64,000 nt of DNA from Longimicrobiales bacterium. GTDB lineage: Bacteria > Gemmatimonadota > Gemmatimonadetes > Longimicrobiales > Gaopeijiaceae. The notes below the pieces were generated by a model. It was not told where the DNA came from. It did no database searches and was given only the letters and a program-made list of their open reading frames with translations. Position numbers and translations under genes: made by a program. This document shows, one piece after another, positions 24,001 through 62,600 of this stretch (the first letter of the stretch is position 1; every line of letters starts with the position of its first letter). The stretch covers positions 2,272,001-2,336,000 of the forward strand of contig OZ242008.1 in assembly GCA_965204735.1 (NCBI GenBank). Direction: 5' to 3'.

Positions 24001-26982
24001 GGTCCCGTTCACCTTGTGGGCGGGCACGTTGGAGAACGCGTGGCTTCCCAGCCCCAGCGTCGCGGCGGCGCCCGTCCCGCTCCGGATGCTTCCGCCGTTC
24101 AGCTCCAGCGCGTTCGCGCCCACGCTGATCCCGTCCGCGTCCAAGTCCGTCGCGAGCGTCTCGTAGCTGAACGTCAACGCGCTCGTTCCGTTCCCGCTCG
24201 CGTAGGCCGCGTGACGGGTGGCGCTCCCGATCGTCAGGGCCAGCCGGGGCGTGCCCGTGACCGTCACGGCGAACCCGAACGACACCCGCACCGAGATCGT
24301 CTCGGCCGCTGCGTAGGTGTCCCCGCTGTCCGGCCTGCTCGTGACGAGAACGTTGGTCACCGCAGGCATCGTCCTGCTCCCGTCCACCTTGTGGCCCGAG
24401 GCACTGCTGATCGCGTGCGTGCCCAGGCCTAGCGTGGCGTTCTGGGCCGACTCGCTGACGATCGACCCGCCGTTGAGCGTCAGCGCGCCGGACCCGACGC
24501 TGATTCCGTCGCGGTCCCGGTCCGTCGCGCGCGCAACGTAGCTGAACGTCAGCGTGCCGGTCCCGGTTCCGCTGGCGTACTCGGCGTGCCGGGTCCTCTC
24601 GCCAATTCCCAGCGCCACGCGGGGCGTGCCCGTCACGCTCACCGGCGTGGTGAAGCCGATCTGCACCGAGATCGTGTCGCCCGCTCCGTAGGTGTCGCCG
24701 CTGGCCGGCGCGCTCGCAATCGACGCCGCGCGCACCGCGGGAACCGTCGCCGTGCTGCCGTTCACCTTGTGGCCCGAGGCGTTGGTGACCGCGTGAGCGC
24801 CCAGCGCCAAGGTGGCGTTCGCCCCGGCCGCGCTCCGGATCGTGCCGGAGTTGAGCGCCATGGCGAACACCGAGACGCCGTCCGCGTCCCTGTCCGCCGA
24901 CCGCACGACGTAGCGGAAGGCCAGCTTCTTGCTGCCGCTCCCGCTCTGATATGCGGCCGTCTTGGCCAGCGAACCGACCGTCAAGGAGACGGTGGGGCTC
25001 CCGGTGACCGTCACCGGCGCCGTGAACCCGACTTCCACGCGAACCGCCTCGCCGGCGCCGTAGGTGTCTCCGCTCGCCGGCGCGCCGACGACCGCCACCG
25101 AACTCACGGTGGGCGTGGTGGCGGTCGTCCCGACCACCCGGTGGCCCGACGCATTGGATATGGCGTGGCTTCCCAGATCCAGGTTCGCGGCGGCGCCGGC
25201 CGTGCTCCGAATCGTCCCGCCGTTCAGTTGCAGGGCGGTCGTCCTGATGCTGATCCCGTCGGGGTCGAGATCGCGGCTGGTCACCACGTACCCGAAGTGC
25301 AGCGACTGGCCCGACGTTCTGCGCAACGTCGCGAACGCAGGCCCGCCGCCGAAAGCGATCTGCAACCGGGGACTGCCGACGACCCGGATCGGAACCGCGG
25401 CAGCGAACTCGACCTCCACCTCGATCAGCTCGCCGCCCCCGTACACTTGGGCGCTCAACGAAGGAGTGCTGGTGATGCGCACGCCGCTCACGCTCGGCGC
25501 GGTTGCCGAGGCGCCGTTCACCTTGTGGCTCGCATTGGCCGAGAAGGCGGCGGCCCCCAGGCCGAGCCCGGCGTTCCGCGTTCCGCCGACCTCCTTGATC
25601 GTCCCGCCGTTGAGCGCGAGCGCGTTGGCGGCGACGCCGATCCCGTCCAAGTCCGAATCCCCCGCCTGCACGACGTACCGAAACCCGATGCTGTTCGACC
25701 CGACGCTCTCGTAGGCGGCGTGGCGCACGGCGCTGCCGACCGTCAGCGCCAGCCGAGGCGCGCCGGTCAACGCGATCGGCGCGCTGAACTGCACTTCCAG
25801 TTGGACAACCTCGCCGGCGCCGTAGGTGTCGCCCGCAAGAGGCGTGCCGACGAAGCGCACTGCCGACACCAGCGGAAGTGTGGTCGGCGTCGCCTTGGCT
25901 TCGCTCGTCGAGCCGGCCCCGGCGCCGTTCCTGGCCCGGAGCTGAAACTTGTACTTGCTTTCATTCGTCAGCGGACGGACCACGTGGCGGGTGGTGGTGG
26001 CGTCGCTGCCCGCGATCGTCGTCCAGCTCGACGGGTAGCTGGCCGTATCCAGGGCGTGGCGAACTTCGTAGCTGCCGATGGTGGAGTTCCCGGGGTCGGT
26101 CCACGTCAGCGTCGCTTGGCCCGGCGCCGCCGTCGCGGCTAGCCCGGCGGGGGCGGCCGGGGCGGCGAGCGCGCCGTTGACCTTGTGCCCGGCGGCGTCG
26201 ACGATGCGGTGCCGGCCGATCGTCATGGTGGGGTGGCCGCCCCAGGCGTAGAAGAGATCGGCGTCGCTCAGCGCGTTGGGACCGATGCTGATCCCGTCGC
26301 TGTCCACGTCCGCCGTTTGGACGGTGTAGCTGAACGTATGCGTGGCCTGACCACGAGCGGTGTAGTTCCATGTCGCCCGTCGGCTGGCGCCGCCGATCGT
26401 GATGTCCAGGTACGGATGGCTCAGACCAGCGTAGCGGACGCTGTTATTCCACCTGACCGCTACCACAATCGTCTCGCCGGCGGCGTACGTGTCGCCCGTC
26501 GGCGAACTCGTGATCGAAACGCCGCTGATCGGCACGTTGGCCGTACTGACTCTCGTCCTGCTCGCCCCGCCGCAGTCAGCGCCGGCGCAGGCCCTGATTT
26601 CGAATTGGTACCGCCTGGGGCTGCTCAGGCCTCCGACCGTGGCCGAAGTCGTGCTGCTGTCGCTGCTTGCGACGTCCGTCCATTGATTGGGGAGATTGGT
26701 TCTGTACAAGGCGTAGCGGTACTGGTACTTGGTGATCGCCGCGTTGCCCGGGTTGTCCCAGCCCAGATCGATCGACGAGGTGGTGGCTTGGTGGGCCCAG
26801 AACCCGGTCGGCGCCGCAGGCGCCTGAGCGGCGGCAGGGCCTGCCGGGGCGAACACCGACGCAACTCCGGCGAACGCGAGGGCCGCGACCACGCAAGACC
26901 GCTTGGCTTGATGCCAGGCTTGGCGCCAATCGGAACCCGGCAAGCCGAACAAGCGCGCGCCCGTTCCTCGAATCACTGGCAT
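1..26982 (-). CDS. Giant repetitive secreted surface protein / adhesin (at least 8994 aa, 3' end outside the window): signal peptide, six FN3 domains, about 65 Ig-like DxDxDG repeats
   Basis: I translated the minus frame with codons at plus positions 1-3, 4-6, etc. by hand at 1-60, 6121-6180, 22621-22920 and 26821-27420 and found no stop. The ORF track lists no minus ORF in this frame below 28255, and the long antisense shadow ORFs (847, 9613, 22861, 24586, 26185) all share this register. From ATG 26982 the N-terminus reads MPVIRGTGARLFGLPGSDWRQAWHQAKRSCVVAALAFAGVASVFAPAGPAAA|QAPAAPTG, which looks like a Sec signal. The start is uncertain because there are in-frame ATGs at 27147 and 27207. 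Confidence 0.9.
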   Translation of the reverse strand, partial: MPVIRGTGARLFGLPGSDWRQAWHQAKRSCVVAALAFAGVASVFAPAGPAAAQAPAAPTGFWAHQATTSSIDLGWDNPGNAAITKYQYRYALYRTNLPNQWTDVASSDSSTTSATVGGLSSPRRYQFEIRACAGADCGGASRTRVSTANVPISGVSITSSPTGDTYAAGETIVVAVRWNNSVRYAGLSHPYLDITIGGASRRATWNYTARGQATHTFSYTVQTADVDSDGISIGPNALSDADLFYAWGGHPTMTIGRHRIVDAAGHKVNGALAAPAAPAGLAATAAPGQATLTWTDPGNSTIGSYEVRHALDTASYPSSWTTIAGSDATTTRHVVRPLTNESKYKFQLRARNGAGAGSTSEAKATPTTLPLVSAVRFVGTPLAGDTYGAGEVVQLEVQFSAPIALTGAPRLALTVGSAVRHAAYESVGSNSIGFRYVVQAGDSDLDGIGVAANALALNGGTIKEVGGTRNAGLGLGAAAFSANASHKVNGASATAPSVSGVRITSTPSLSAQVYGGGELIEVEVEFAAAVPIRVVGSPRLQIAFGGGPAFATLRRTSGQSLHFGYVVTSRDLDPDGISIRTTALQLNGGTIRSTAGAAANLDLGSHAISNASGHRVVGTTATTPTVSSVAVVGAPASGDTYGAGEAVRVEVGFTAPVTVTGSPTVSLTVGSLAKTAAYQSGSGSKKLAFRYVVRSADRDADGVSVFAMALNSGTIRSAAGANATLALGAHAVTNASGHKVNGSTATVPAVRAASIASAPASGDTYGAGDTISVQIGFTTPVSVTGTPRVALGIGERTRHAEYASGTGTGTLTFSYVARATDRDRDGISVGSGALTLNGGSIVSESAQNATLGLGTHAISSASGHKVDGSRTMPAVTNVLVTSRPDSGDTYAAAETISVRVSFGFAVTVTGTPRLALTIGSATRHAAYASGNGTSALTFSYETLATDLDADGISVGANALELNGGSIRSGTGAAATLGLGSHAFSNVPAHKVNGTRTVPAVASVAIASSPASDSTYGAGETISVQVAFNLAVTVTGAPRLAVTVGSATRYAAYASGSGSKTLTFSYETVAGDRDNDGISIAAGALGLNGGTIRSAGGATAALALGTHAISNSAAHKVNGSTTAPTVASVTISSTPRGGTYTLGATISVQVGFSIAVTVTGTPRLALTIGSATRQASYASGSGTKTLTFSYTVVAADRDGNGISVGATALGLNGGTIRSATAINARLGLGGHAISDASDHAVDGRKVAAAPSGLTATPLGATQARLDWINPGNSLITGYQYRYRPSDGGAFTGWTNIPSSSATTTSGEVTVSNGGRPYRIELRATVGTAAGDAAFTTIGLFRARINRVEITSSPRTGASYRTGEEIRVRFHVIDGHDIDSDSWGPILSLQIGSSTRTSQGESGGLTMHYTYFDYRYTVVSDDHDPDGISIGPNALDFGTWDPQAFTYTRELYVYRPSFSLVSPAIGTNQIVNAPGHKVNASATPTGSVPAAPTGLTATPGNAQATLNWTDPQDTTIVGYQVRHGPAAGSYSGWTDISGSSATTTSYTVGSLTNGAAYKFQVRAANANGTGSESSEVRATPVAVTVVSGVRFANGPRTGDTYGAGEVVRVEVDFSDSVAVTGEPLLELTIGDSVKQAFGVRLPSRPSTIHFRYTVETADVDADGIGIAAGALKLNGGTIIGVNSRAALLGLGAYAYAANASHKVDGSTGTVPNVDLVRITSTPVIGDVYGAGEQIEAEVRFGALVPIRVVGAPRLALAIGDSTRQATLTRTAGQSLHFRYTVRSSDSDADGIGIAAGALTLNGGTIRSTVGTNASLNLGSHAITAAATHKVTGSSATAPAVTGAAVTSTPVSGDTYGAGEKIGASVTFRLPITVTGSPQLALTIGTQTRQATYLRTAGRTLHFEYAVQAADRDANGIGIGASALTLNGGTIRSDAGAAATLGLGSHALSDASGHKVNGAVAPNPFVSAVRIASRPVASADSYGGGERIEVEVEFAAAIAIRVSGAPQLAIGIGSQTRQAALLETTGQVLRFGYVVQRADLDANGISILAGALALNGGTIRSAAGAGAVLGLGAHAIEDAAGQKVLGSNNATPAATSVEISSSPDDGDTYGATDTISVAVGFNVPVTVTGTPQLAVTIGSGTGQASYSSGSQTKTLTFDYEVGATDVDADGIGVGGSALTLNGGTIRSATAANATLSLAGHAIANAAGHKVNGTTTAPTVSSVAAASQPAIGGSYGAGETISVQVGFDLAVTVTGTPQLALSLDADTVQAAYAGGSGTKTLTFDYTVRATDRDADGFTVERGALTLNGGTIQSAGGADAALRLNVELLSDQIDGSVTPPEVASARFDTSPASGDTYGAGELIAVRIGFQIPVTVTGSPQLALGIGAATVQASYAGGSGSKSLAFSYVVQSADVDADGVSVGPTALALNGGTIRSAAGTNARLALGRTHQITNSSGHKVDGSTATPPSVTGARVASSPASGDTYGGGERIEVAVEFSIPVVVTGVPELALTIGDSTRQASYLIGSRTETLTFGYVVRATDVDADGFSVADSALSLAGGTLQSSFGAAAALSLGSHALAGVAAGKVNGATATVPAVVSAAIFSDAGSDSTYGAGDGIAVRIGFQIPVTVTGGPQLALGIGTGTAQASYAGGSGTKTLTFRYTVRATDVDSAGISVGASALSLNGGTIRSGTGTNAALGLGANAIASAAAHKVDGATTVPAVLAVVIASDAGADSTYTAGDTISVQVGFQIPVTVTGSPQLALGVGAATAQASYAGGSGTKTLTFDYVVQAADADSTGISVGASALALNGGTIRSGAGTNAALGLGTHAIADAAAHKVDGAGSPPRVDGVAVGSPVVGDTFERGEAISVTLTFDKAVDVTGTPQLALTIGAATRQASYASGTGTTSLVFRYTVVAADADADGLSIGAGALGLNGGTIDMAGGTTDAVLGLGSLAVSNSSGHKVAGGTFTAAAASGVTITSSPASDSTYVLGEQIEVEVTFARPVAVTGTPQLALTIGAATRQADYASGTGTKTLSFAYAVAAADTDADGIGIGASALGLNGGAIADARDSTTVASLGLGANAISNSAAHKVNGARGPPGVTGLAVGSPVVGDTFERGDTIAATVTFNKAVDVTGTPQLVLTIGAATQQAGYASGTGTASLVFRYVVASGDADADGLSIGAGALGLNGGTIDVAGGTTDALLGLGAHVLSNSSGHKVAGGTFTAAAVSGVAIASSPASDSTYGLNERIEVKVAFSRRVSVTGTPQLALTIGAATRQAEYASGTGTDTLSFAYTVGVADADSDGLGIGASALTLNGGAVADARDGATAAGLGLGTNAIAAAAAHKVDGTRGPPTVTGVAVGSPVVGDTFERGDTIAVTVTFHKAVDVTGTPQLALTIGAATRQAGYASGTGTASLVFRYVVASGDADADGLSIGASALTLNGGTIDEAGGTTDAALGLGSHAVSNSSGHKVAGATFTAAAVTGVTITSRPASDSTYGAGDRIEVEVTFARSVAVTGTPQLALTIGAATRQADYVAGTGTKTLAFRYAVAATDSDSDGISIGASALTLNGGGIADARDGATAAGLGLGANAVSNSAAHKVNGSLATLAAPSGLTATPTASGAIQLRWTDPSDTTITKYQVRHRNESSSGSFTAWADVASSGASTTSHTVSSLTDQVDYRFELRAVAGSRAGRASFALARPSDIWVTGVRITSSPTADDTYGPGQTIEVTVSFSAFRPRVTGSPVLKIGVGTATRDAAYSGTGLTSARFQYTVTAADADSDGISIGPNALDFTAGWVNTRFSIASPTIGRYAIANSASHKVDGLLGTPAAPTGFSASPGNAQVTLNWTDPSDTTLTGYQFRQAIATEPFSRWTDISGSDASTTSHIVPSLSNGTEYKFQVRAQNSVGAGHASEEARATPTSAPVVTAVRFVGTPVSGDTYGAGEVVRVDVEFSAVLTVTGSPRLALTIGAAARQAAMERVRERAVRFAYTVRSGDVDADGIGVAAAALTLGGGTISGPGGASAQLSLGARAFTANAAHKVNGATATAPFVDFVQITSSPSSGDTYGGGERIDVHVRFGAAVPITVVGSPRLALTVGAQTRQATLSRASGQSLHFGYVVQAADADADGVSIGASALTLNGATIRSGAGAAAGLGLGAHAVADASGHKVSGSTATAPAVSAVSITSAPASGDTYGAGEKITARVSFQLPIVVAGTPRLALAVGSQTRQAEFVRLSGQSMYFDYTVLSSDADADGISIAANALSLNGGTILSTIGTAAALGLGAHAVANASGHKVSGSTATTPEATSVSVTSAPVSGDTYGAGERIEVKVGFNLEVRTTGSPQLVLGVGAATRQAALLGGDGAGLTFGYVVQSADVDADGISVGASALGLNGGTIASTAGATAALGLGGHAIANASAHKVNGASATTPAVVSASVTSAPASGDTYYAGEAIAVAVGFDVPVAVTGAPQLALTIGAQTRQAAYVSGTNTKTLTFRYTVVLADSDSTGIAVGASALGLNGGTIRSGVGTNAGLGLGAHAIADAAGHKVDGTSTAPTVNAASIASTPATGDSYGAGETIAVEIGFNFPVTVTGTPRAALTIGAATRHADYASGSGNTSLRFEYVVDATDADADGISLAAGALELNGGTVRSSVGTDAALGLGSYAIADASAHKVNGAATAPAVTGATIVSDAGNDSTYAAGDAVSVEVAFQIPVTVTGTPQLALTIGTGVGQAAYAGGTGTKTLTFSYTVRATDVDGNGIAVAANALTLNGGALQSGAGTNAALSLGTFAIADAAAHKVDGTSTVPVVTGVAVASSPAGSDTYGAGETISVRVGFSIPVTVTGAPQLAVAVGSATRQVAYASGSGTTALVFDYVTLATDRDDDGISVGAGALTLNGGTIRSGSGTNATLALGSHAIANASGHKVNGAATAPLVSSMSISSAPASGDTYGGGEKITVSVVFQIPVTVTGTPQLALTVGNATRQADYASGSGTAALAFDYVVQTADSDSNGISVGPTALTLNGGTVRSAAGTNANLSLFVNAFSNSPDHKVDGSSATTPTVRAATIGSDAGADSTYFAHDAIVVEVGFSVPVTVTGAPQLVLTIGAQTRQASYASGSGTTALTFRYVVTAADSDSDGIAVGASALALNGGTIRSSVGADATLGLGANAIAAAAAHKVDGSQGPPGVTGVTVGSPVVGDAFERHDTIAVTVTFDQAVDVTGTPQLALTIGTATKQASYAGGTGTTALVFRYVVASGDVDADGLSIGAGALALNGGTIDEAGGTTDAVLGLGAHAVSNSSGHKVAGNTFTAASVSGVTISSTPPGTDSTYGLGDVIEVQVTYTRPVVVQGTHLLKLAVNIGTQTPYASYASGTGTKTLTFRYTVQASDSDSDGIGLPARALTLSGATISDARDGTTATSNGLGTHVITAAAAHKVDGSQGTAGVTALAIGSPPVGDAFERGDTIVVTVTFNKAVDVTGTPQLALGIGAATRQASYASGTGTAALVFRYVVVQADADADGLSIGAGALALNGGTIDVAGETTDALLGLGSRAVSNSSGHKVAGGTFTAASVSGVSITSSPSSDSTYGFGEQIEVQVAFNRRVSVTGTPQLALTIGAQTRQAAYASGTGTTTLTFRYAVGTADSDSDGIGIGASALALNGGAIADARDGSTAAGLGLGTNAIAAAAAHKVDSARGPPGVAGVAVASPVVGDTFERGDTIWVTVTFNKAVDVTGTPRLFLTIGTQTPTASYASGTGTTALRFRYVVAAGDADADGLSVAASALHLAGGTIDAAGDTTNASLSLGAHTLSNSSGHKVAGGTFTAAAVSGMSITSSPAADSTYGLGEQIEVQATFSRRVSVTGTPQLALTIGAQTRQAEYASGTGTTVLTFRYAVAVADADSDGIGIGASALTLNGGAIADARDGSTAAGLGLGANAVTAAAAHKVDGAQGAAGVTGVSIGDPVVGDTFERADTIAVTVTFNKAVDVTGAPQLALTIGAVTRQAAYASGTGTASLVFRYVVVQADADADGLSIGASALSLNGGTIDVAGETTDALLGLGSHAVSNSTGHKVAGGTLTGPAPSGVAIASTPSSDSTYGRTERIEVEVTFVRPVVVTGTPQLALTIGTQTRQASYASGTGTATLAFRYTVQGTDRDSTGLSVGASALALNGGTIADARDGTTAATLGLGAHAVSNAAAHKVDGSLGTPGVIGVSFADDPYNAEYERGDAIDVRVSFSRTVDVTGTPRLALGIGSQTRQAAYASGTGTNTLVFRYVVVQSDRDIDGISIGASALTLNGGTIRAAGTTMDAVLGLGSHAITNSSSHQVNGSLFTGLAVEDVVVRSVPASDSTYKLGERIELDVLFQRAVVVTGTPQLALGIGSATRQASYASGSGTKRLRFRYAVAAADVDADGISLSASALTLNGGTINDARAGGSAAGLGTSASVFSNDAAHKVNGGVGAPSVSALTIGAPVVGDVFERGDTIVATVEFNAAVAVTGTPQLALGIGSATRQAGYASGTGTASLVFRYVVVAADADADGLSVGASALALNGGTIRRTGTTTDAVLDLGAHAVTNSAGHKVAGGTFTAAAVSGVSIASVPGSDSTYVRTERIEVEVSFARPVTVTGTPQVALGIGSQTRQAAYASGSGTKTLTFRYAVQAADSDSDGISIGASALGLNGGTIVDARDGATAAGLGLGSHAIANAAAHKVDGARGPPGVSGLSIASPVVGDTFERGDTIAVTVTFTDSVDVTGTPRLALGIGSATQQASYASGTGTASLVFRYVVASGDADADGLSIGASALALNGGMIDVAGGTTDALLGLGSHAVSNSTGHKVAGGTFTAASVSGVTIASTPASDSTYAETEEIAVEVSFNRRVTVTGTPQLALAIDTLTRQAEYVDGTGTATLTFAYQVVAADADSTGLSIGASALGLNGGTIADARDGTTAASLGLGSNAVSDAAAHKVDGSLPPPPTRTTGAPEARGLAIGAPAVGDTFERGETIEVELVFHRAVDVTGAPQLALAIGAATRQAEYASGTGTDTLVFRYVVAIGDSDADGISIAASALTLNGGTIRASGEALDAVLDLGAYAIANSGGHKVAGGTFTTPAVSAVTISSAPAADSTYHLGERIEVKVAFGRPVTVTGAPQLALTIGSQTRQASWESATSKADTLVFGYAVRPADADTTGISIGSSALALNGGTINDVRAGATAASLGLGSNAIVNAAAHKVDGSLGPPGVTHLAVTAPLSAQTFERGDTIIASVRFNKAVDVTGTPQLALGIGSATRQASYASGTGATELEFRYVVVQSDADADGISIGANALTLNGGTIDVAGGTADALLSLERLAISNAAGFRVAGGTFTAPAVSWAGITSTPSDGSTYELGEQIDVTVTFNRNVTATGAPQLALTIGSQTRQAAYDSAASGSRELEFRYVVAAGDADANGISVGASALALNGGTIVDPRDGSTAANLGLGGNAIVDAAGHAVDGSRGPPGVSGASIASPPTGDTFERGDTVAATVTFNKAVDVTGTPQLALTIGTQTRQASYAGGTGTAALVFQYVVVQADADADGLSIGASALALNGGTIDVAGGTTDAVLGLGSHAVSNSTGHKVAGGTFTASSVSGVTISSSPASGDTYGLGEQIEVEASFVRPVSVTGTPQLALDVGTDTVQADYASGTGTKTLTFSYTVAASDADSDGISIGASALALNGGTIVDARDGSTAASLGLGSSAIANAASHKVDGAQGPPGVTALSVASPVVGDTFERGDTVAATVTFNKAVDVTGTPQLALTIGSATRQASYAGGTGTASLVFRYVVASGDADADGLSIGAGALSLNGGTIDVAGGTTDALLGLGASAVANSTGHKVAGGTFTAASVSGVAITSAPASDSTYGRTERIEVEVAFNRRVAVTGTPQVALTIGSQTRQAAYASGSGTTTLAFRYTVAAADADSTGIGIGASALTLNGGAIADARDGATAASLGLGTNAIANAAAHKVDGSRGPPGVTALSISAPTVGDTFERGETIEVSLLFNRAVDVTGTPRLALGIGSATRQASYAIGTGTDTLVFRYVVASGDADADGISIGASALALNGGTIRVAGGTLDATLGMGASAVVNSTGHKVAGGTFTTPAVSAVTVSSTPASASTYQLGESIEVKVAFGRPVAVTGSPQLALTIGTQTRQASYMAASSKADTLVFAYAVRPVDADADGISIGASALALNGGTIADVRPGAAAAALGLGASAVTNAAAHKVNGSLGPPGVVGLSVAAPLVGATFERGDTVAATVTFNKAVDVTGTPQLALSIGSQTRQASYASGTGTTALVFRYVVVQADADADGLSIGASALALNSGTIDVAGGTTDALLSLAHHAISNDGTRRVAGGTLTAASASGVAITSAPASDSTYGRTERIEVEVTFDRRVAVTGTPQVALTIGSQTRQADYASGTGTTTLTFGYTVAAADADANGISIGASALGLNGGTIADARDASEAAGLGLGSNAIANAAAHKVDGNQGPPGVSGLVVASPPTGDTFERGDVIAATVTFNRAVDVTGTPQLALGIGTQTRQASYASGSGTTSLVFQYTVVQADADADGLSIGTSALALNSGTIRLSGGTLDATLGLGTHAISNSTGHKVAGGTFTAASVSGVTISSAPSSGDTYGLGEEIEVEVTFVRPVSVTGTPQLALGVGTDTVQADYGSGTGTKTLAFSYTVAASDADSDGLSIGASALALNGGTIVDARDGSTAASLGLGSSAIANAASHKVDGAQGPPGVTALSIASPVVGDTFERGDTVAVTVTFNKAVDVTGTPQLALTIGAATRQASYAAGTGTASLVFRYVVASGDADADGLSIGASALALNGGTIDVAGGTTDALLGLGASAVSNNTGHKVAGGTFTAASVSGVAITSAPASDSTYGRTERIEVEVTFNRRVAVTGTPHLALTIGAQTRQAEYARGTGTATLAFRYTVAAADADSTGIGIGASALTLNSGAIADARDGATAASLGLGSNAIANAAAHKVDGSRGPPGVTGLSISAPTVGDTFERGE
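15255..16195 (-). other. FN3 - variant repeat - FN3 cassette 3 (within the giant CDS)
   Basis: The motifs are AAPSGLTATP...IQLRWTDP...ITKYQVRH...LTDQVDYRFELRA and PAAPTGFSASPGNAQVTLNWTDP...LSNGTEYKFQVRAQNSVGAG. Boundaries are approximate. Confidence 0.8.
22245..23250 (-). other. FN3 - variant repeat - FN3 cassette 2 (within the giant CDS)
   Basis: The motifs are AAPSGLTATP...ARLDWINP...ITGYQYRY...YRIELRA and PAAPTGLTATPGNAQATLNWTDP...LTNGAAYKFQVRAANANGTG. Boundaries are approximate. Confidence 0.8.
25875..26820 (-). other. FN3 - variant repeat - FN3 cassette 1 (within the giant CDS)
   Basis: FN3 hallmarks are present: PAAPTGF...IDLGWDNP...ITKYQYRY...GLSSPRRYQFEIRA and PAAPAGL...ATLTWTDP...YEVRH...LTNESKYKFQLRARNGAGAG. 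Boundaries are approximate. Confidence 0.8.
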
Positions 26983-27009
26983 CGCGACGGTTGCGGGGGA
27001 CCAAACAAA

Positions 27010-27030
27010 GGGGGGGGGGGGGGGGGGGGG
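27010..27030. repeat. G21 (C21 on the minus strand) homopolymer tract, a candidate phase-variation simple sequence repeat
   Basis: The sequence reads ccaaacaaa-G21-cggagacac, 27 nt upstream of ATG 26982 of the giant gene. Confidence 0.9.
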
Positions 27031-27363
27031 CGGAGACACTGACGAATGATACACGCCGGGCCGCCTGGCTGCTACCGTTGCCCTCGTCCCCGGGCCGCGT
27101 GCGTTGACCGGATAGTGATCTCTGCGACCGGATCGTCCTCGCGGCATCGTCCACGGGCGCGTTGACCCCGGCCCGCATGCGGCGGTGACCAGCCGGCGCG
27201 CCCACATTGCTCCACCGCACGCGTTGGCCCGGCGTCGGCCGCCGGCTACCGGCGCGTTGGCCCGAGCGGCGGCGACGCCGTACACTTGGGCCGATCGCAC
27301 ACTTGAGCCGACTCGGCCGGGCGGATGCTCGGCTCCGGCTCCCGATGCCCACGGAGCGTCGAA

Positions 27364-27639
27364 ATGCCCTTCGCCACATGGGTCCGGATCGCCTGGGCCT
27401 ACCACCTCGCCTTCGCCGCGGCCGTCACGTGGCCGGGCCAGACGCTTGTGAACGTCCCGTCGCCCTTCGTGCTCGGGATGCCGCGCCAGATGGCGTGGGT
27501 GGCGGCTTGGCTGGTCGGCAGCCTCCTCGTGCTGTGGCGCATGGAGGCGGCGCGCAGGCGGAGCCGCGGCGAGGCGCCGGCGGGCTCGGCGCACACTCCG
27601 CCCGAGGAATCGGTCAGGCGCGAGCCCTCTGGTGAGTAG
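27364..27639 (+). CDS. Small membrane protein (DUF3311-like partner of a sodium:solute symporter)
   Basis: It has two hydrophobic segments with a WP...N...PFVLGMP...W...W pattern and overlaps the start of the symporter gene. Confidence 0.65.
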   Translation: MPFATWVRIAWAYHLAFAAAVTWPGQTLVNVPSPFVLGMPRQMAWVAAWLVGSLLVLWRMEAARRRSRGEAPAGSAHTPPEESVRREPSGE

Positions 27640-29092
27640 GGTCGCGCTCGTCGCCGTCGTCATCGTCGGCTACTTGGCGACGACGCTGGCGGTCGGTCTC
27701 TTGGCGGGCCGCCGGGCGTCCAAGAGCGTCCAGGGCTACGTGGCCGGCGACAGGAACTTCGGCCTGCTGGTCATGTACTTCGTCACCGGGGCGTCGGTCT
27801 TCTCCGCCTTCGCCTTCCTGGGCGGACCCGGCTGGGCGTACTCCCGGGGCGCGGCCGCCTTCTACATCCTTTCCTACGGCGTGCTGGGCATGGCCCCGTG
27901 GTACGCGATCGGACCCAAGGCCGCCGCCCTGGGCCGCCGCTTCGGCTTCGTGACCCAGGCCCAGCTGCTGGTAGGGCGCTTCCCGTCCCGAGGCCTGTCG
28001 ACGCTGATGGCGGCGCTGACGCTGGTTTCGTTCGTGCCCTACGTCGCCATCCAGATGAGGGGCGCTGGGATCGTCGTGGAGGCCGTGACCGACGGGGCCG
28101 TTCCCTTGGCCGCAGGGGCGGCGGTCGCCTACGGGATCGTGATGGTCTACGTCCTGGCGAGCGGCGTGTCGGCTGTGGGATGGACCAACACCTTCCAAGG
28201 CGTCTTCATGCTGACGATCGCATGGGTGCTGGGGATCTACTTGCCCTACCGGCTCTACGGTGGCGTCGGTCCGATGTTCGAGGAGATCCTCGCCGCCCGT
28301 CCCGAGCTGCTGACCGTGCCCGGGCTGGACGGGGACGGTAACGCATGGAGCTGGGGATCGTACTCTTCGGCAATCCTCGTCAGCGCCATCGGCTTCACAA
28401 TGCTTCCCCACCTCTTCATGAAGGCGTTCACCGCAAGGGACGACGACACGATCCGCCGCACGGTCGTGCTCTTCCCCACGTTCCAGCTCTTCCTGATCCC
28501 GGTCTTCCTGATCGGGTTCGCAGGCGTGCTCTTCCCCGAGTCGCCGGAGCGCTCCGACTTCATCCTCCCCTTCTTGATCCTGCGCACCGACCTGCCGGCG
28601 CTGGTGGTGGGACTCTTCTGCGCGGGCGCGCTCTCGGCCTCCATGTCCACCGGCGACGCCCTCCTCCACGCGGGAGCCTCCGTGGTGGTGGAGGACGGCG
28701 TACAGCCTTTCCGCCGGCTCTCGGACAAGGCCCAGCGAAACCTCATTCGCGCACTCGTGGTGGCCGTGGGGGCGGTTGCCTACTGGCTGGCGCTTTCGGA
28801 CTCGTCGTCTCTGGTCGACCTGCTGCTGGCGTCCTACGGGATCATCTGCCAGTTCATGCCAGCCGTGCTGGCGGCGCTGTACTGGCGCCGCGCGACGACC
28901 GCCGGCGTGGTCTCCGGGCTGGTGGCCGGCTCCGCGGTGGCCGCGCTCTTCTTGCTGATGCCCGAGTGGAAGCCGCTGGGCGTTCACGAAGGCATCCTGG
29001 GACTGCTCGTCCACGTCCCGGTGCTGGTGGGCGCGAGCTTGGCCGGGAAGCCCCAGGACCCGGAGCACGCGAGCAGCTACGTGGATGCGTGA
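27632..29092 (+). CDS. Sodium:solute symporter (SSS family)
   Basis: This 486-aa polytopic membrane protein carries the motifs YVAGDRNFG, FSAFAFLGGPGWAY, WTNTFQG and GALSASMSTGDALL. Confidence 0.9.
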   Translation: MSRVALVAVVIVGYLATTLAVGLLAGRRASKSVQGYVAGDRNFGLLVMYFVTGASVFSAFAFLGGPGWAYSRGAAAFYILSYGVLGMAPWYAIGPKAAALGRRFGFVTQAQLLVGRFPSRGLSTLMAALTLVSFVPYVAIQMRGAGIVVEAVTDGAVPLAAGAAVAYGIVMVYVLASGVSAVGWTNTFQGVFMLTIAWVLGIYLPYRLYGGVGPMFEEILAARPELLTVPGLDGDGNAWSWGSYSSAILVSAIGFTMLPHLFMKAFTARDDDTIRRTVVLFPTFQLFLIPVFLIGFAGVLFPESPERSDFILPFLILRTDLPALVVGLFCAGALSASMSTGDALLHAGASVVVEDGVQPFRRLSDKAQRNLIRALVVAVGAVAYWLALSDSSSLVDLLLASYGIICQFMPAVLAALYWRRATTAGVVSGLVAGSAVAALFLLMPEWKPLGVHEGILGLLVHVPVLVGASLAGKPQDPEHASSYVDA

Positions 29093-56630: not shown

Positions 56631-59600
56631 CTACTTGAAGGTGATCGTGCCGACGACTCCGACGCGGCGTTCCGGGGGCTGGAAGCCGTCGGCCGCCTGC
56701 TCGCCGAAGAAGTCCATCACCAGGCGGAGGCCGGGGTCCTGCTCGGCGGTTTGGCCGCCCAGAGTGGCCCATTGCGTCCCCACATTCAGGCGGTAGCCGG
56801 CCGCGCCCTCGCGGCTCCAGCGGCCGAACGGCTTGATCCGACCGCCGCCGGGCAGCACCAACCCGTAGCCGACCTCCATCGCCAGGCGGGACGGGGCCCA
56901 GCCCCGGGCGTCCTGGGTCGCTCCGAAGCCGTGGGCGGACGGGAAGCCGTGGGCCGGCCCGACGCCGTGGCTCGGGGGACCGCCGTGGCCAGTGGGGCCG
57001 CCGTGGCCGGTGGGGTCGTGGCCGGTGGGGCTGCCGTGGCCGGTGGAACCTCCCTGACCGGTGGGGCTGCCGTGGCCGGCTTGGTCGCCGGCGGCGGGCA
57101 CGGTGCTGCCGGGCTGCACCGCCGGACCCGGCGCGCCCAGGCCCGGCACGCCCGCGCTGCGCCACACGTCGCCGCCGCCCTGCCACAGCGTCTGCGCGCC
57201 CCCCGAAGCATTGCCCCACGACGGCTCCAGCGAGAACGACAGCCCGCCGTCTTCGCGGCCGGGCTGGACCCGCAGCGCCACCGCCGCGCCCCACTCCTTG
57301 AAGTTCCGGTCCTGGTGGATCAGCAGCATCCGGCCTCGCGCGTCCAGGCTCAAACCGCTGCCCGCGTGCACCAACCCCAGCTCGGCGCCCGCTTCGGCCC
57401 CCATCCCCGTCTCCGCGTCGCCACCGTCGTAGCGACCGCCCACCTCGATGCGCGTGCGCATGGCGACGCTGCCGCTCGTCCACTGCCCGCCCAGCTCGGG
57501 CGCCAGCCGCACCCGCTGCGCGCCAGCCGTCACCGCCGCCACGTGCACGTCCGACGCGTCCGTCATCATGCGCACCGCGAAGGCGTCGGCCTTCAGCGCC
57601 AAGCCGCCCACCAGCCGCTGGCGCACGCCCAGCGCGCCCATCCGCATCCGCAGGTCGGCGTCGTAGGTGGGAGGACCCATCTCGCCCACGTTGGCGGCGC
57701 CCCGCCCCGCGCCGGCCAAGCCCCAGATGCCGAAGCCGCCCTGGGACGACCAGCTGGCGTAGGGGTAGAGGCTGTTCAGGTGGGCCTTCGTCTTGCCCAC
57801 GCCGTTGATCCCGCTCTCGTAGTTCGCCGCCATGTCGCTGCGCGAGCCGGCCAAGCCCATCAGGAAGCCCGAGCCGAAGCGGTAGTCCAGGCCCAGGTAG
57901 GCCGAGCGGGTGCGGCCGTCCATGGCGAAGTCGTCTTCGGGGCGGCCCTCGAACTCGCCCATGTTGGCCTGGCCCCACAGCGTCCAGCCCGTCTGGGAGG
58001 CCGTCTGCGCCGGGGACGCGCCGGGCGAGGCACTGGCGGAGCTGGCGGCATCGGCGTCGGCGCCGCCCTGGCCGTCGGGCGAGCCGCCGCCGAAGGAGAG
58101 CTGGAACGAGCTCCGGGAGCGGAGGTCGCGGCCTGTCAGCGGGCTGAAGGCGATGCCGCCGTGCGTGCGCTCGGCACGGCCCGCGTCCTCTTCCCGCTGG
58201 CCCTGGTACGAGCCGCCCTGGCCGAGGGCGCCGCTCGGGGCGCCGCCCAAGCCCGCTGCGCCGTCGCCGAAGAAGATGGCGGCCAAGTCCAGCGTTCCGC
58301 CCGGGGTGCCGCCGGGTCCCGACCCGGCGGTGCCCGGATGGGTGACCTGGAGGCCCAGCAGCCCGGTTGCGTCCCGCACCAGCGACTCGAGTCCGCAACG
58401 ACCGCCCGAAACGCCCCCACCCCAGCCCGCACCGGCGTGGGACGAGGCCGTGCCGTCGAACGCGACGCCCGCGCCACGGCCGCCACCGAACGCGACGCAG
58501 CTCAGCGAGCGCCCGCCCAGCTGCACGTGCGAACGGCCCCGCGAACCCGACGACTCCAGACCCAACCGACCGCCGATCGCGTCGACCGTCTCCGTTCCCA
58601 GCGATCGTCCGAACGCCGCCAGCGTCAGCTTCAACGCCCGCGCCCGATCCGCACGCGACGCCGACACCGTCACGCTCGCCTGTTGCGTCGCCGTCAGCCC
58701 GCCCGCATCCGTCGCCGTCACCGTCACCACCGTCGCGCCGATCTCCCGCGGCGCCACCGACAGCCGTCCCGCGCCCGACACCGACGCGGCCGCCACGCTC
58801 GGCGACGACGACACCACCACGTAGCTCAGCGCGTCGCCGTCCGGGTCCCGGAAGTACTCGCCCAGACCTACCTCCCACGGCGCACCGCCCACCTCCAGCA
58901 CCGGCGGCGACAGCGAGCCCACCGCCTCCGGCCCCTCGTTCACGTTCAGCAGCGTCACCACGACCGCAGCCTCGGCCGTTAGACCGCCGCCGTCCGTCAC
59001 CCGCACCACCAGCGCGAACTCCGGTGGACCGTCCTCGTAGTTCTCGCCGGCACCCACGTAGCGCACACGCCCGCTGGCCCCGTCCACCTGGAAGCGGCCC
59101 GCGTCGCCCTGCGCCAAGCTGTACGTCAGCACGTCGCCGCGGTCCGGGTCCGTCGCCTCGACCCGTCCCAGCTCCCGAGGCCCGCGCACGTTCTCCGCCA
59201 GATCGAAGGCGTACGCAGAGTCCACGAACGCGGGCGCCTCGTTCACGTCCAGCAGCAGCACCCTCACCTTCGCCACCGCCGCCAACCCCGCCCGGTCCGT
59301 CGCCACCACCTCGAACTCCCAGCCCTCAGGACCCGTCTCCGCGTCCTCGCCAGCGCCCACGTACCGCACCACCCCGCTCGACTCGCCCACGTCGAACAGC
59401 GCCGCGCTCGCGCCGCTCAAGCTGTAGCGCAGCGTGTCGCCCGCGTCCACGTCCGTTGCCTCGACCGCGCCGAGCTCCACCGGGCCCGCCACGTGCTCCG
59501 CCAGCTCCCACTCCCAGATCGACTCCACGAACACCGGGCCCTCGTTCCGGTCCTCGAGCGTCACCACCACTCGGGTCCGCGCTGTCAGGCCGCCTCGGTC

Positions 59601-62600
59601 CGTCGCCGTCACCTCCAGCTCCCAGCTGCCCGGGCCCGTCTCCGCATCCTCGCCTGCGCCCACGTACTGCACCGCACCGCTCGTCGCGTTCACCTTGAAC
59701 CGCTCGGCGTCGCCCGCCGTCAGCGCGTACGACAGCCAGTCGCCAGCGTCCGGGTCCGTCGCCCGAACCTCGCCCAGCAGCAGCGGACCGCGAGCGTTCT
59801 CCGCCAGATCGAAGGCGTACGCAGAGTCGGCGAACGCTGGCCCCTCGTTCACGTTCGTCAACTTCACCGCGACGACCGCCCGCGCGCTCGAACCCGCCAG
59901 GTCCGTCGCCGCCACCTCCAGCTCCCACGACTTCGGTCCCGCGCCCTCGTAGTCCTCGCCCGAGCCCACGTACCGCACCGCGCCCGTCGCGCCGTCCACC
60001 TCGAAGCGGTCCGCGTCGCCCGCCACCAGCCGGTACGTCAGCGTGTCGCCCTCGTCCAGGTCCACCGCCTCCGCCACGCCCAGCGCCAGCGGCCCCGCAA
60101 CGTTCTCCGCCATGGCGAAGGCGTACCGCTCCGCCGTGAACACCGGCGCGTCGTTCACGTTCACCAGCCGCACCGTCACCGTCGCATCGCCCGTCCGCTC
60201 CCCGTCGTCCGCCGTTGCGCGCACGATCATCACGAACTCCGAACGCGACTCCGCGTCCTCGCCCGTCCCCACGTACCGCACCTCGCCGGTGCGAGCGTCC
60301 ACCTCGAAGAGACCTTCGTCGCCCGCCGCCAGCGAGTACGCCACCTCGCCGCCGAAGGGGTCCGTCGCACTCACCGTCCCCACCACCACCGGCCCCGACT
60401 CGTCCTCCGTCAGCTCGAACTCGTACTCCGCACGACCGAACACCGGGTCCGTGCCCCCGGCCCCGTTCACTTGGTGCTCCTCCAGGTTCTCCACCGCGTA
60501 GCTGCCCAGGTCCAGCGCCGCCGCCGTCGTCCCGCCCGCGATCCGCAGTGCGCCGCCTGCCGCAGTCAGCGCGTCGGCCGGGATGCTGATCCCGTCCTCG
60601 TCCCGGTCCGCAGGCTGCACCACGTACTCGAACACCAGCACCGGCGTGCCCGAGCCCGACACGTAGCTCGCATGACGCACGGCCGTCCCGATCTCGATCG
60701 CCAGCCGCACCGGAGCCGTCGCAGCCGACATGTGGCCCGCCTGCTGCGGCGCCCCCGCCACCTCCACCGGCCTGCTGAACGTCACCGCCACCCGGATCAC
60801 GCTGCGCGGACCGTACAGTCCGCTCGCGCCCGGCGTGCTCGTCACCGCCAACCCCACCACCACGGGCACCGCCTCCACCGTGCCGTTCACCTTGTCGTTC
60901 GCCGCCGCCGCGATCGCGTGGCTGCCCAACGCCAGAACCGCCGGACGAACCCCGTCCGCCGTGTTCACGATCGTCGCGCCGTTCAGCGTCAGCGCGGCAG
61001 CCGCCACGCCCACGCCGTCCGCGTCAGCGTCCACGCCGCCCGTCCCGCTGCCGCCACTGCCCGCGCCCTGCACGCGGTACGCGAACGACAGCGTCGCCGT
61101 GCCGCTGCCGCCCACGTAGCTCGCCTGACGCGTCGCCGTGCCCACCGTCAGCGCCAGCTGCGGCGCGCCCGTCACCGTCACCGCACGGTCGAACGTCACC
61201 TGCACCTCGATCCGCTCGCCCAGGCCGTAGGTGTCGCCGCTCTCCGGCGTGCTCGACACCGCGACGCCCGTCACCGACGCGCCCGCCAGCGTGCCGTCCA
61301 CCTTGTGGCCCGCAGCCGCGCTCAACGCATGGCTGCCCAGTCCCAACGCCGCTGCCGTCGAGCCGTCCCGGGCGTCGTTGATCGCCCCGCTGTTCAGCGC
61401 CAGCGCGCTCGCGCCGACTTCGATCCCGTCCGTGTCCGCGTCCGCAGCCACCACCGTGTAGTGGAACGTCAGCGTGTACGTGCCCGTCCCGCTCGCGTAG
61501 TCCGCCTGCCGCGTCTGCGCGCCCACCGTCAGCGCCACCTGGGGCGTGCCCGTCACCGCCACCCGACGGTTGAACGTCACCTGAACCTCGATCTGCTCGC
61601 CCCGACCGTACGTCGTCGCCACCGCCGGCGAACTCGTCAGCGACACGCCCGACACCGACGCCGCCGTGAACGTCCCGCCCGCGACCTTGTGGCCCGCGCT
61701 GTTCGTCACCGCGTGCGCGCCCAGCCCCAGAACCGCGTCCACCGCCCCGCCCGCCACGTCGATCATTCCGCCGTTCAGCGCCAGCGCGCTCGCGCCGATG
61801 CTCAACCCGTCCGCGTCCACGTCCGCCGTCACCACCACGTACCGGAACACCAACGACGCCGTGCCCGTCCCCGATGCGTAACCCGCCTGCCGGGTCTGCG
61901 TCCCGACCGTCAGCGCCAGCTGCGGCGTGCCCGTCACGTCCACACCCTTGTTGAACGTCACCGTCGCAACCACCGTGTCGCCCCGCTCGAAGGTGTCGCC
62001 GATCGGCGGCGACGCGATCGACACACCGCTCACCCCCGGCGGGCCCTGGGCACCGTCCACACGGTGGCCCGTGCTGTTCGATATCGCGTGGCTGCCCAGC
62101 CCCAGGCTCGCAGCCGTCGAACCGTCGCGCGCGTCCGAGATCGTCCCGCCGTTCAGCGCCAGCGCGCTCGCGCCGATGCTGATGCCGTCGGTGTCCGCGT
62201 CCGCAGCCGCCACCGTGTAGCGGAACGTCAGCACGCCGCCGCCCGCCGCCACGCTCGTCGCCGAATCGTACGCCGCCTGCCGCGTCTGGCTCCCGATTGT
62301 CAGTGCCAGCTGGGGCGCGCCCGTCACCGTCACGTTGCGGTCGAACGTCACCTCCACCTCAATCTCCTCGCTCAACCCGTACGTGCTCGCGCCCGCCGGG
62401 CTGCTCGTGATCGTCACGCCGCTCACCGACGCCGCCGTGAACGTCCCGCCCGCAACTCGCAACGCGCCGTCGTTGCTGATCGCATGATGCGCCAAGCTCA
62501 GCAAGGCGTCCGTCGTACCGCCCGCCACGTCGATCGTACCCCCGTTCAGCGCCAGCGCGCTCGCGCCGATGCTCAACCCGTCGGTGTCCGTGTCCGCCGT

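Follow-up and report, generated by a model that had tools for sequence, protein, structure and literature searches.

A C21 tract ahead of a giant predicted adhesin gene as a candidate three-state translational switch in a marine Gemmatimonadota bacterium

In a 64,000-nucleotide stretch from a Longimicrobiales bacterium (Gemmatimonadota, Gaopeijiaceae; assembly GCA_965204735.1, contig OZ242008.1, positions 2,272,001 to 2,336,000; hereafter the window, whose own numbering is used unless a position is prefixed with G000, the source genome), a run of 21 cytosines lies on the minus strand at the 5′ end of the gene for a giant predicted surface protein, which we call an adhesin on account of its domain content. 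We propose that slippage of this C21 tract within a short upstream reading frame acts as a three-state translational switch (fused, re-initiated, off) of the 40-kb predicted autotransporter adhesin. That the adhesin is switched by slippage in some form is very probable on comparison of the sequences presented here, and the three-state version is one that we rate as somewhat better than an even bet. The source genome (one contig of 4.14 Mb with 69% GC) belongs to an uncultured marine bacterium that likely dwells in sponges; among the sequencing runs in which long, nearly identical stretches occur are sponge metagenomes (X4, X5) and one marine metagenome (X6).

The presumed slippage tract (27010–27030, minus strand as all features below) reads as a perfect G21 on the plus strand and is, as the first-pass annotation of the window had noticed, its only long homopolymer, no other of at least 7 bases occurring in these 64,000 nucleotides. 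C/G runs of 5 bases number 8028 in the source genome and those of 8 bases only 15, but there are still 27 runs of 12–36 bases. Extrapolation of the decay over lengths 5–8 predicts about 2 × 10⁻¹¹ runs of 21 bases and 0.004 runs of at least 12 bases as against the 27 observed, and a chance origin of C21 is therefore excluded. As in simple sequence repeat (SSR) contingency loci, the repeat is far longer than expected by chance and is placed where its length alters the reading frame, namely between in-frame GTG codons and the signal peptide. That the long tracts result from a loss of mismatch repair was rejected because both mutS and mutL are present, as are rho and efp.

The first-pass annotation had described a 27-kb gene, a figure that results from the window cutting the gene: from ATG 26982 to G000:2258906 it spans ~40 kb and encodes 13,358 amino acids, the 5′ two-thirds of which (1–26982) lie in the window and carry fn3 repeats, while cadherin domains and the predicted barrel follow beyond the window start. 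Pfam places the fn3 domains within the first 4,994 amino acids and the cadherin domains near the protein end. The final 500 amino acids, which have no match in Pfam or NCBIfam, resemble the beta domains of autotransporters when compared by language-model features (0.96; autotransporters make up 28 of 30 matches), and a low-confidence model of them (pLDDT 42) shows twelve long strands with the BrkA barrel as the best Foldseek match (E 1.5e-5), so that a C-terminal autotransporter barrel is predicted. A sequence comparison of the barrel with the PDB gave just two weak antibody matches, which were discarded. At the other end, the region 26827–26982 (MPVIRG...VVAALAFAGVASVFAPAGPAAA↓Q) looks by eye like a long Sec signal peptide, being basic, then hydrophobic, with an AAA↓Q pattern. 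Type Va autotransporters (e. g., those with the BrkA, EspP, and Hbp beta domains) combine an N-terminal signal peptide, a long passenger, and a C-terminal 12-strand barrel. By prediction, the giant protein would share this layout but differs in a barrel without Pfam or NCBIfam match and in a passenger of ~12,800 amino acids made of fn3/cadherin-type repeats.

ATG 26982 indeed lacks an obvious Shine–Dalgarno (SD) sequence, with an anti-SD duplex energy of +1.0 and no pairing. Three further starts upstream, ATG 27147, GTG 27054, and GTG 27039, share one frame, and from ATG 27147 the minus strand reads MPRGRSG...HSSVS-P8-FVWSPATVAMPVIRG, the coding-strand C21 keeping the frame through P8 into MPVIRG; the in-frame state that had been read from this assembly is thus correct. 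As the upstream start, ATG 27147 (27145–27147) is unlikely. Its SD energy is only −1.4, and its frame is not stable because run X5 has a 14-base deletion at 27132, between this ATG and the tract, and X5, X6, and X9 carry a duplication around 27143–27171 (single-copy in the window, in these runs present in two copies with 32 other bases between them). GTG 27054 and GTG 27039 fit better. The former follows an SD-like AGGCGG (27066–27061) at a 6-base spacing (element 27052–27066; duplex −5.8) and is the best upstream start candidate, in frame with the adhesin at C21. The latter (SD energy −2.0) stands 6 bases behind TATCAT, a −10-like hexamer (27051–27046; element 27037–27051), and may alternatively serve as leaderless start or mark the transcription start. 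Leaderless initiation at GTG 27039 is possible, but the TANNNT peak of the genome is restricted to ATG (56/1001 in frame versus 12/685 out of frame), GTG showing no such signal (11/1026 in frame versus 17/1040).

In the proposed mechanism, replication slippage would heritably alter the tract length, and ribosomes would start at GTG 27054 or 27039. At C21 they would read in frame into the adhesin, giving a signal peptide extended by poly-proline and a gene that is ON or partly ON. With C20 or C23, in contrast, the frame ends at a TGA (26975–26973) 7 bases past the SD-less ATG 26982; at this predicted junction (26973–26982) ribosomes would terminate and re-initiate, so that the gene would likely be ON with its native signal peptide. 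In the third frame (C19/C22, also C10), the first stop comes at 26576–26578, 404 bases into the gene, and out-of-frame reading would leave it OFF, Rho-dependent polarity presumably sparing the cell most of the 40-kb transcript; Rut sites have been described to favor C-rich, unstructured RNA and to be exposed by loss of translation (PMC12360218). A change by one base, which had been expected to frameshift the whole gene if the upstream start is used, may thus not amount to a plain OFF state, as in the case of a lost base (C20). With 12 such giant genes in the genome (see below), a population would display changing subsets of surface proteins.

The sequence pattern expected of such coupling recurs at other loci. 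From 116 + 69 tracts, 40 secreted-protein loci of six genomes were chosen by motif and coding score. An ATG lies at most 30 bases upstream of the tract in 29 of these 40; after collapsing similar flanks, 20/30 retain it as compared to 10.5 in dinucleotide shuffles (p=0.001). ATG is thus enriched upstream of the tracts across loci, whereas the source adhesin offers only GTG 27054 with its AGGCGG and GTG 27039. In most adhesin genes, the signal peptide that follows the tract still begins with a start codon (MPVAR, MTFGR, MWVVR; MPVIR in the source gene). An SD of −5 or stronger precedes just 4 of 32 such starts, whereas 48% of 1048 predicted ATG genes have one. In 28 of 32 loci, the +1 frame meets its first stop within −5 to +13 of the signal-peptide start (by start-context clusters 11/13; p=0.0065 versus a null of 0.47, for which 266 control genes were used), and so it does at all eight loci fetched later from genomes G114 and G141 (36/40 in total); at the source adhesin it adjoins the start at +7. 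This stop is built in various ways, for example, by ATGA, GTGA, or TGATG, by the rare codons GTA or CTA, or, at the source adhesin, by TGA. GTA makes up 16 of 30 valine codons at codons 2–6 and none of 71 at codons 7–30 (1.5% genome-wide), and family members without the GTA-derived TAG show TGATG in its place. Both orthologs of the adhesin (L046, L047) have a GTGA overlap. Judged from the nearest ATG, the assembled frames comprise 18 coupled, 10 fused, and 5 off states (n=33). Systematic under-calling by one base was considered as a cause of the coupled-state excess and rejected, the coupled class occurring in only 2 of 15 internal tracts.

Precursor-like open reading frames (ORFs) offer a related picture. 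In the same-genus genome G003, a strong SD and an ATG 3–13 bases before the run are found in 14 short ORFs that share a W-x-x-P-x-L motif, from which it follows that tracts in this genus sit in translated sequence, and in 12 of the 14 a GTGA/ATGA overlap lies 6–8 bases past the run. Arrays of such ORFs of 60–75 amino acids with Cys-rich tails, each with SD, ATG, and C14 to C22, occur in G003 (L024, L029, L078, L084–L087, L089–L091, L099) and G141 (L203–L208), one of them adjoining a cytochrome P450. By sequence they look like a phase-variable library of peptides, to judge from the motif possibly ribosomally synthesized and post-translationally modified peptides (RiPPs).

Comparison with related genomes, which had been named as a check, revealed different tracts in the orthologs and an apparently shorter one in a related strain. 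The orthologs from G002 (same genus; L046) and G141 (another genus; L047) are 96% identical to the adhesin over 1.9 kb of the mature region, and their coding strands carry G12 and G22 instead of C21. The source leader aligns with both ortholog leaders no better than with shuffles, the ortholog leaders share only a 28-base stretch with each other, and the upstream genes differ as well. Three separate gains of a slippery run are the simplest reading, and since the gained runs differ (C21, G12, G22), poly-proline or a strand-specific structure is unlikely as their purpose; what recurs among the orthologs would be mutability rather than poly-proline. Inversion of a shared element was also considered, as the G002 leader shares a reversed 10-base flank with the source leader, but the alignment was no better than shuffles. 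A scan of metagenome contigs for further orthologs confirmed none of 556 candidates.

For other strains, eight runs were compared (X1–X6, X9, X14), among which X4 and X14 do not cover the tract site; as 26995–27043 was masked in the run contigs, their tract lengths are deduced from gap counts or record lengths. Contigs end on both sides of the tract in X1, X2, X3, X5, and X6, which stem from four studies. In X1, both contigs stop after ~20 tract bases, and in X5 two contigs leave 41 and 37 letters unplaced, as expected for a tract of 20 bases and a graph overlap of 30. A single X9 contig (depth 2.7; 8 other letters in 385) spans 26776–27171 and is 11 bases shorter, corresponding to ~C10 if the flanks are unchanged. 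X2 and X4 also contain the G002-type signal peptide on the same adhesin body (26800–26862), and strains with different leaders on one body therefore co-occur in a sample.

Such tracts are abundant in the source genome. Among its 16 giant genes (at least 3000 amino acids), 12 have a run of at least 12 bases at the 5′ end as compared to 0.14 expected, and all 12 are co-oriented with replication by GC skew; those lacking a tract lie at 396531, 597638, 2772607, and 2876696. Whether a similar tract exists in the paralogous giant gene whose 3′ part occupies 56631–64000 had been named as a check, and its 5′ end beyond the window does bear a C28 (G000:2339180–2339207); an ATG precedes this run by 18 bases, and an MPVAR start follows it after 37 bases. 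The earlier suggestion of slipped-strand phase variation of a surface protein hence gains strong, if indirect, support from the 12 giant genes, the C28 paralog, the ortholog tracts, and the shorter strain, whereas its start at ATG 27147 does not hold up well. Further tracts reside inside methyltransferase-like genes and before membrane-protein genes, names which we presume from their motifs. In five genomes (G000:3424558; L032, L057, L082, L219), a C run with differing flanks and frames occupies an identical internal position of one methyltransferase-like gene, which is a candidate phasevarion. Three genomes of the same genus contain 6, 27, and 46 runs of at least 12 bases. In a sample of the family, runs of at least 14 bases occur in 102 of 201 genomes, and 10 of 201 contain at least 20 of them; three of these ten (G007, G053, G190) are fragmented assemblies in which the C14+ hits concentrate at contig ends, and their counts were disregarded as probable artefacts, G022 not being among those inspected.

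Several observations weigh against stop–start coupling as the operating principle. When frame states are assigned by the strongest SD, the coupled class is not favored (6 coupled, 8 fused, 4 off; n=18), and 9 of the 14 precursor-like ORFs of G003 fall into the off class. A +1 stop lies in the same window in 170 of 312 control genes. Because any +1 TGA follows an NTG codon, it can readily come to overlap an ATG or GTG, and ATGA also occurs at the likely start of two giant genes without tract. Stop window and clusters were picked after the data had been seen, the loci share ancestry, and the eight replicate loci have signal-peptide families in common with those examined first. The source adhesin itself has no near ATG upstream but GTGs only, and its overlap measures 10 bases, not the 1 or 4 bases tested in gene pairs (PMC6728339). 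In that work, coupling was strict in 13 of 14 tested pairs with ATGA/TGATG overlaps, yet removal of the SD lowered reinitiation in 4 of 5 E. coli pairs (PMC6728339). As to the strains, sequencing error in long homopolymers can likewise break contigs, the bridging contig has a depth of 2.7, and the other tract lengths are gap-count estimates.

One alternative is a plain ON/OFF frameshift, in which translation from the upstream start yields protein in the in-frame class (C21, C24) only. The +1 stop would then be incidental or just terminate unproductive translation, and the downstream Met would be a remnant. We consider this unlikely, even though it is the standard mechanism, as for the poly-C of Gardnerella nanH3 (10.1101/2020.09.16.300947). 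Tracts inside methyltransferase-like and other genes of the same genomes (8/15 in frame), secreted genes in which the tract lies within the signal peptide with no Met behind it (L215), and third-frame stops that also occur in linkers (8/29; 5/8) all agree with it. It does not readily explain why, by a first motif list, 29 of 34 loci retain the downstream Met in changing surroundings, nor why the first +1 stops are found at the start codon instead of right behind the tract; at L197, which lacks the family Met, a TGATG overlap lies just past the tract.

Quite unlikely in our view is an untranslated rheostat, with TATCAT as −10 box, transcription from ~27039, and ATG 26982 as the sole start, so that tract length would tune initiation, mRNA stability, or Rho loading in graded fashion. 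The hexamer is suitably placed 6 bases before 27039, and the missing leaderless peak for GTG agrees with this reading. The leader folds weakly (z +3.8; worse than all 200 shuffles), and in 31 of 34 adhesin tracts the mRNA carries the C run, in line with the preference of Rut sites described above (PMC12360218). This C bias is confounded with replication co-orientation, though, and both orthologs have G tracts. Moreover, the enrichment of upstream ATGs would not be expected, and a promoter scan found no sigma-70 promoter. For promoter-spacer phase variation, the tract would have to lie between or abut −35/−10 boxes, but no consensus promoter was found, the sole −10-like hexamer is upstream of the tract, and none occurs between the tract and ATG 26982. 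Promoter-type tracts do exist in the group, and again speak for the rheostat, for example, the C33 abutting TTGACA at G000:1448582 and several G206 tracts without upstream start. As a separate observation, the promoter-type runs noticed (G000:1448582; L019; L065; L105–L117) comprise C26–33 that directly adjoin TTGACA and, in G206, a leader cassette with C14–34 that is repeated. Neither a hairpin nor a terminator was found in the leader.

A sequencing or assembly artefact, or a neutral runaway repeat, is largely refuted and very improbable. The contig-end C14+ hits of the three fragmented relatives do resemble poly-G artefacts, and the exact length of 21 in a consensus homopolymer is uncertain, but the source genome is one contig with internal tracts and unique flanks at the 5′ ends of 12 of its 16 giant genes, contigs from four studies halt at the same site, and the orthologs carry tracts of their own. 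Retention of the tract as a poly-proline spacer before the signal peptide, for which the in-frame C21 and efp might speak, is extremely improbable given that no synonymous CCG/CCA interrupts the run, that the orthologs would encode poly-glycine, and that most paralogs are out of frame with the upstream ATG. Even jointly, the artefact, neutral, and poly-proline readings are thus highly improbable.

The putative three-state switch resembles several known systems in parts. In Gardnerella nanH3, too, a secreted surface protein is encoded by a gene with a long poly-C close to its 5′ end, and the length of this tract modulo 3 sets the frame, but the nanH3 tract has 8–14 bases and is situated behind the signal peptide (10.1101/2020.09.16.300947), whereas the adhesin tract has 21 and stands before an intact signal peptide that has a start codon of its own, in a protein of 13,358 amino acids. 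In Streptococcus gallolyticus Pil1, a variable repeat in a short upstream reading frame also controls a downstream adhesive structure, there through GCAGA repeats and attenuation at a stem-loop terminator (PMC3894217); the adhesin leader contains no terminator-like site, and stop–start coupling is proposed instead. The ATGA/TGATG overlaps of termination–reinitiation coupling, also seen at many tract loci, were described for fixed gene pairs (PMC6728339), while at the tract loci the overlap, 10 bases long at the adhesin, would be switched by slippage. Like Treponema pallidum, the source genome has many G/C tracts before outer-membrane protein genes; in tprL the tract is part of the promoter and precedes the transcription start (10.1101/2020.09.28.316414), while the adhesin tract lies downstream of the sole −10-like hexamer, with a few sister loci being promoter-type.

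In a literature search covering main texts, with most subscription journals outside its scope, neither a report of such tracts in sponge symbionts or Gemmatimonadota nor a description of a slippage-switched coupling overlap was found; the main text of PMC10469786, for example, has no occurrence of 'phase variation' or 'homopolymer'.

Phase variation has been studied mostly in pathogens. The dense contingency tracts on a dozen giant surface proteins suggest that a probable symbiont switches its surface in the way pathogens do, with selection exerted by the host or by phages. If coupling holds true, the switch design would keep the native signal peptide and yet randomize expression. More tentatively, and with somewhat less than even confidence, these Gemmatimonadota may repeatedly re-invent such a switch, in which a homopolymer in a tiny upstream ORF sets whether its stop meets the SD-less target start, providing three heritable states for 10–40 kb adhesins and peptide-precursor arrays, with a new leader each time an adhesin body enters a new genome. 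Metagenome-assembled genomes (MAGs) from short reads break exactly at such tracts, which hides them.

Two minor observations concern other genes. In G141, a C20 run lies ~80 bases before mutS (L213, G141:C1:2516939; Pfam MutS I–IV) with a TGATG overlap further down, possibly a switchable mutator, whereas mutS of the source genome has no such C run upstream. Finally, within the window, a small membrane protein gene and a sodium:solute symporter gene (PF00474) at 27325–29092 are divergent from the adhesin gene and share its upstream region.

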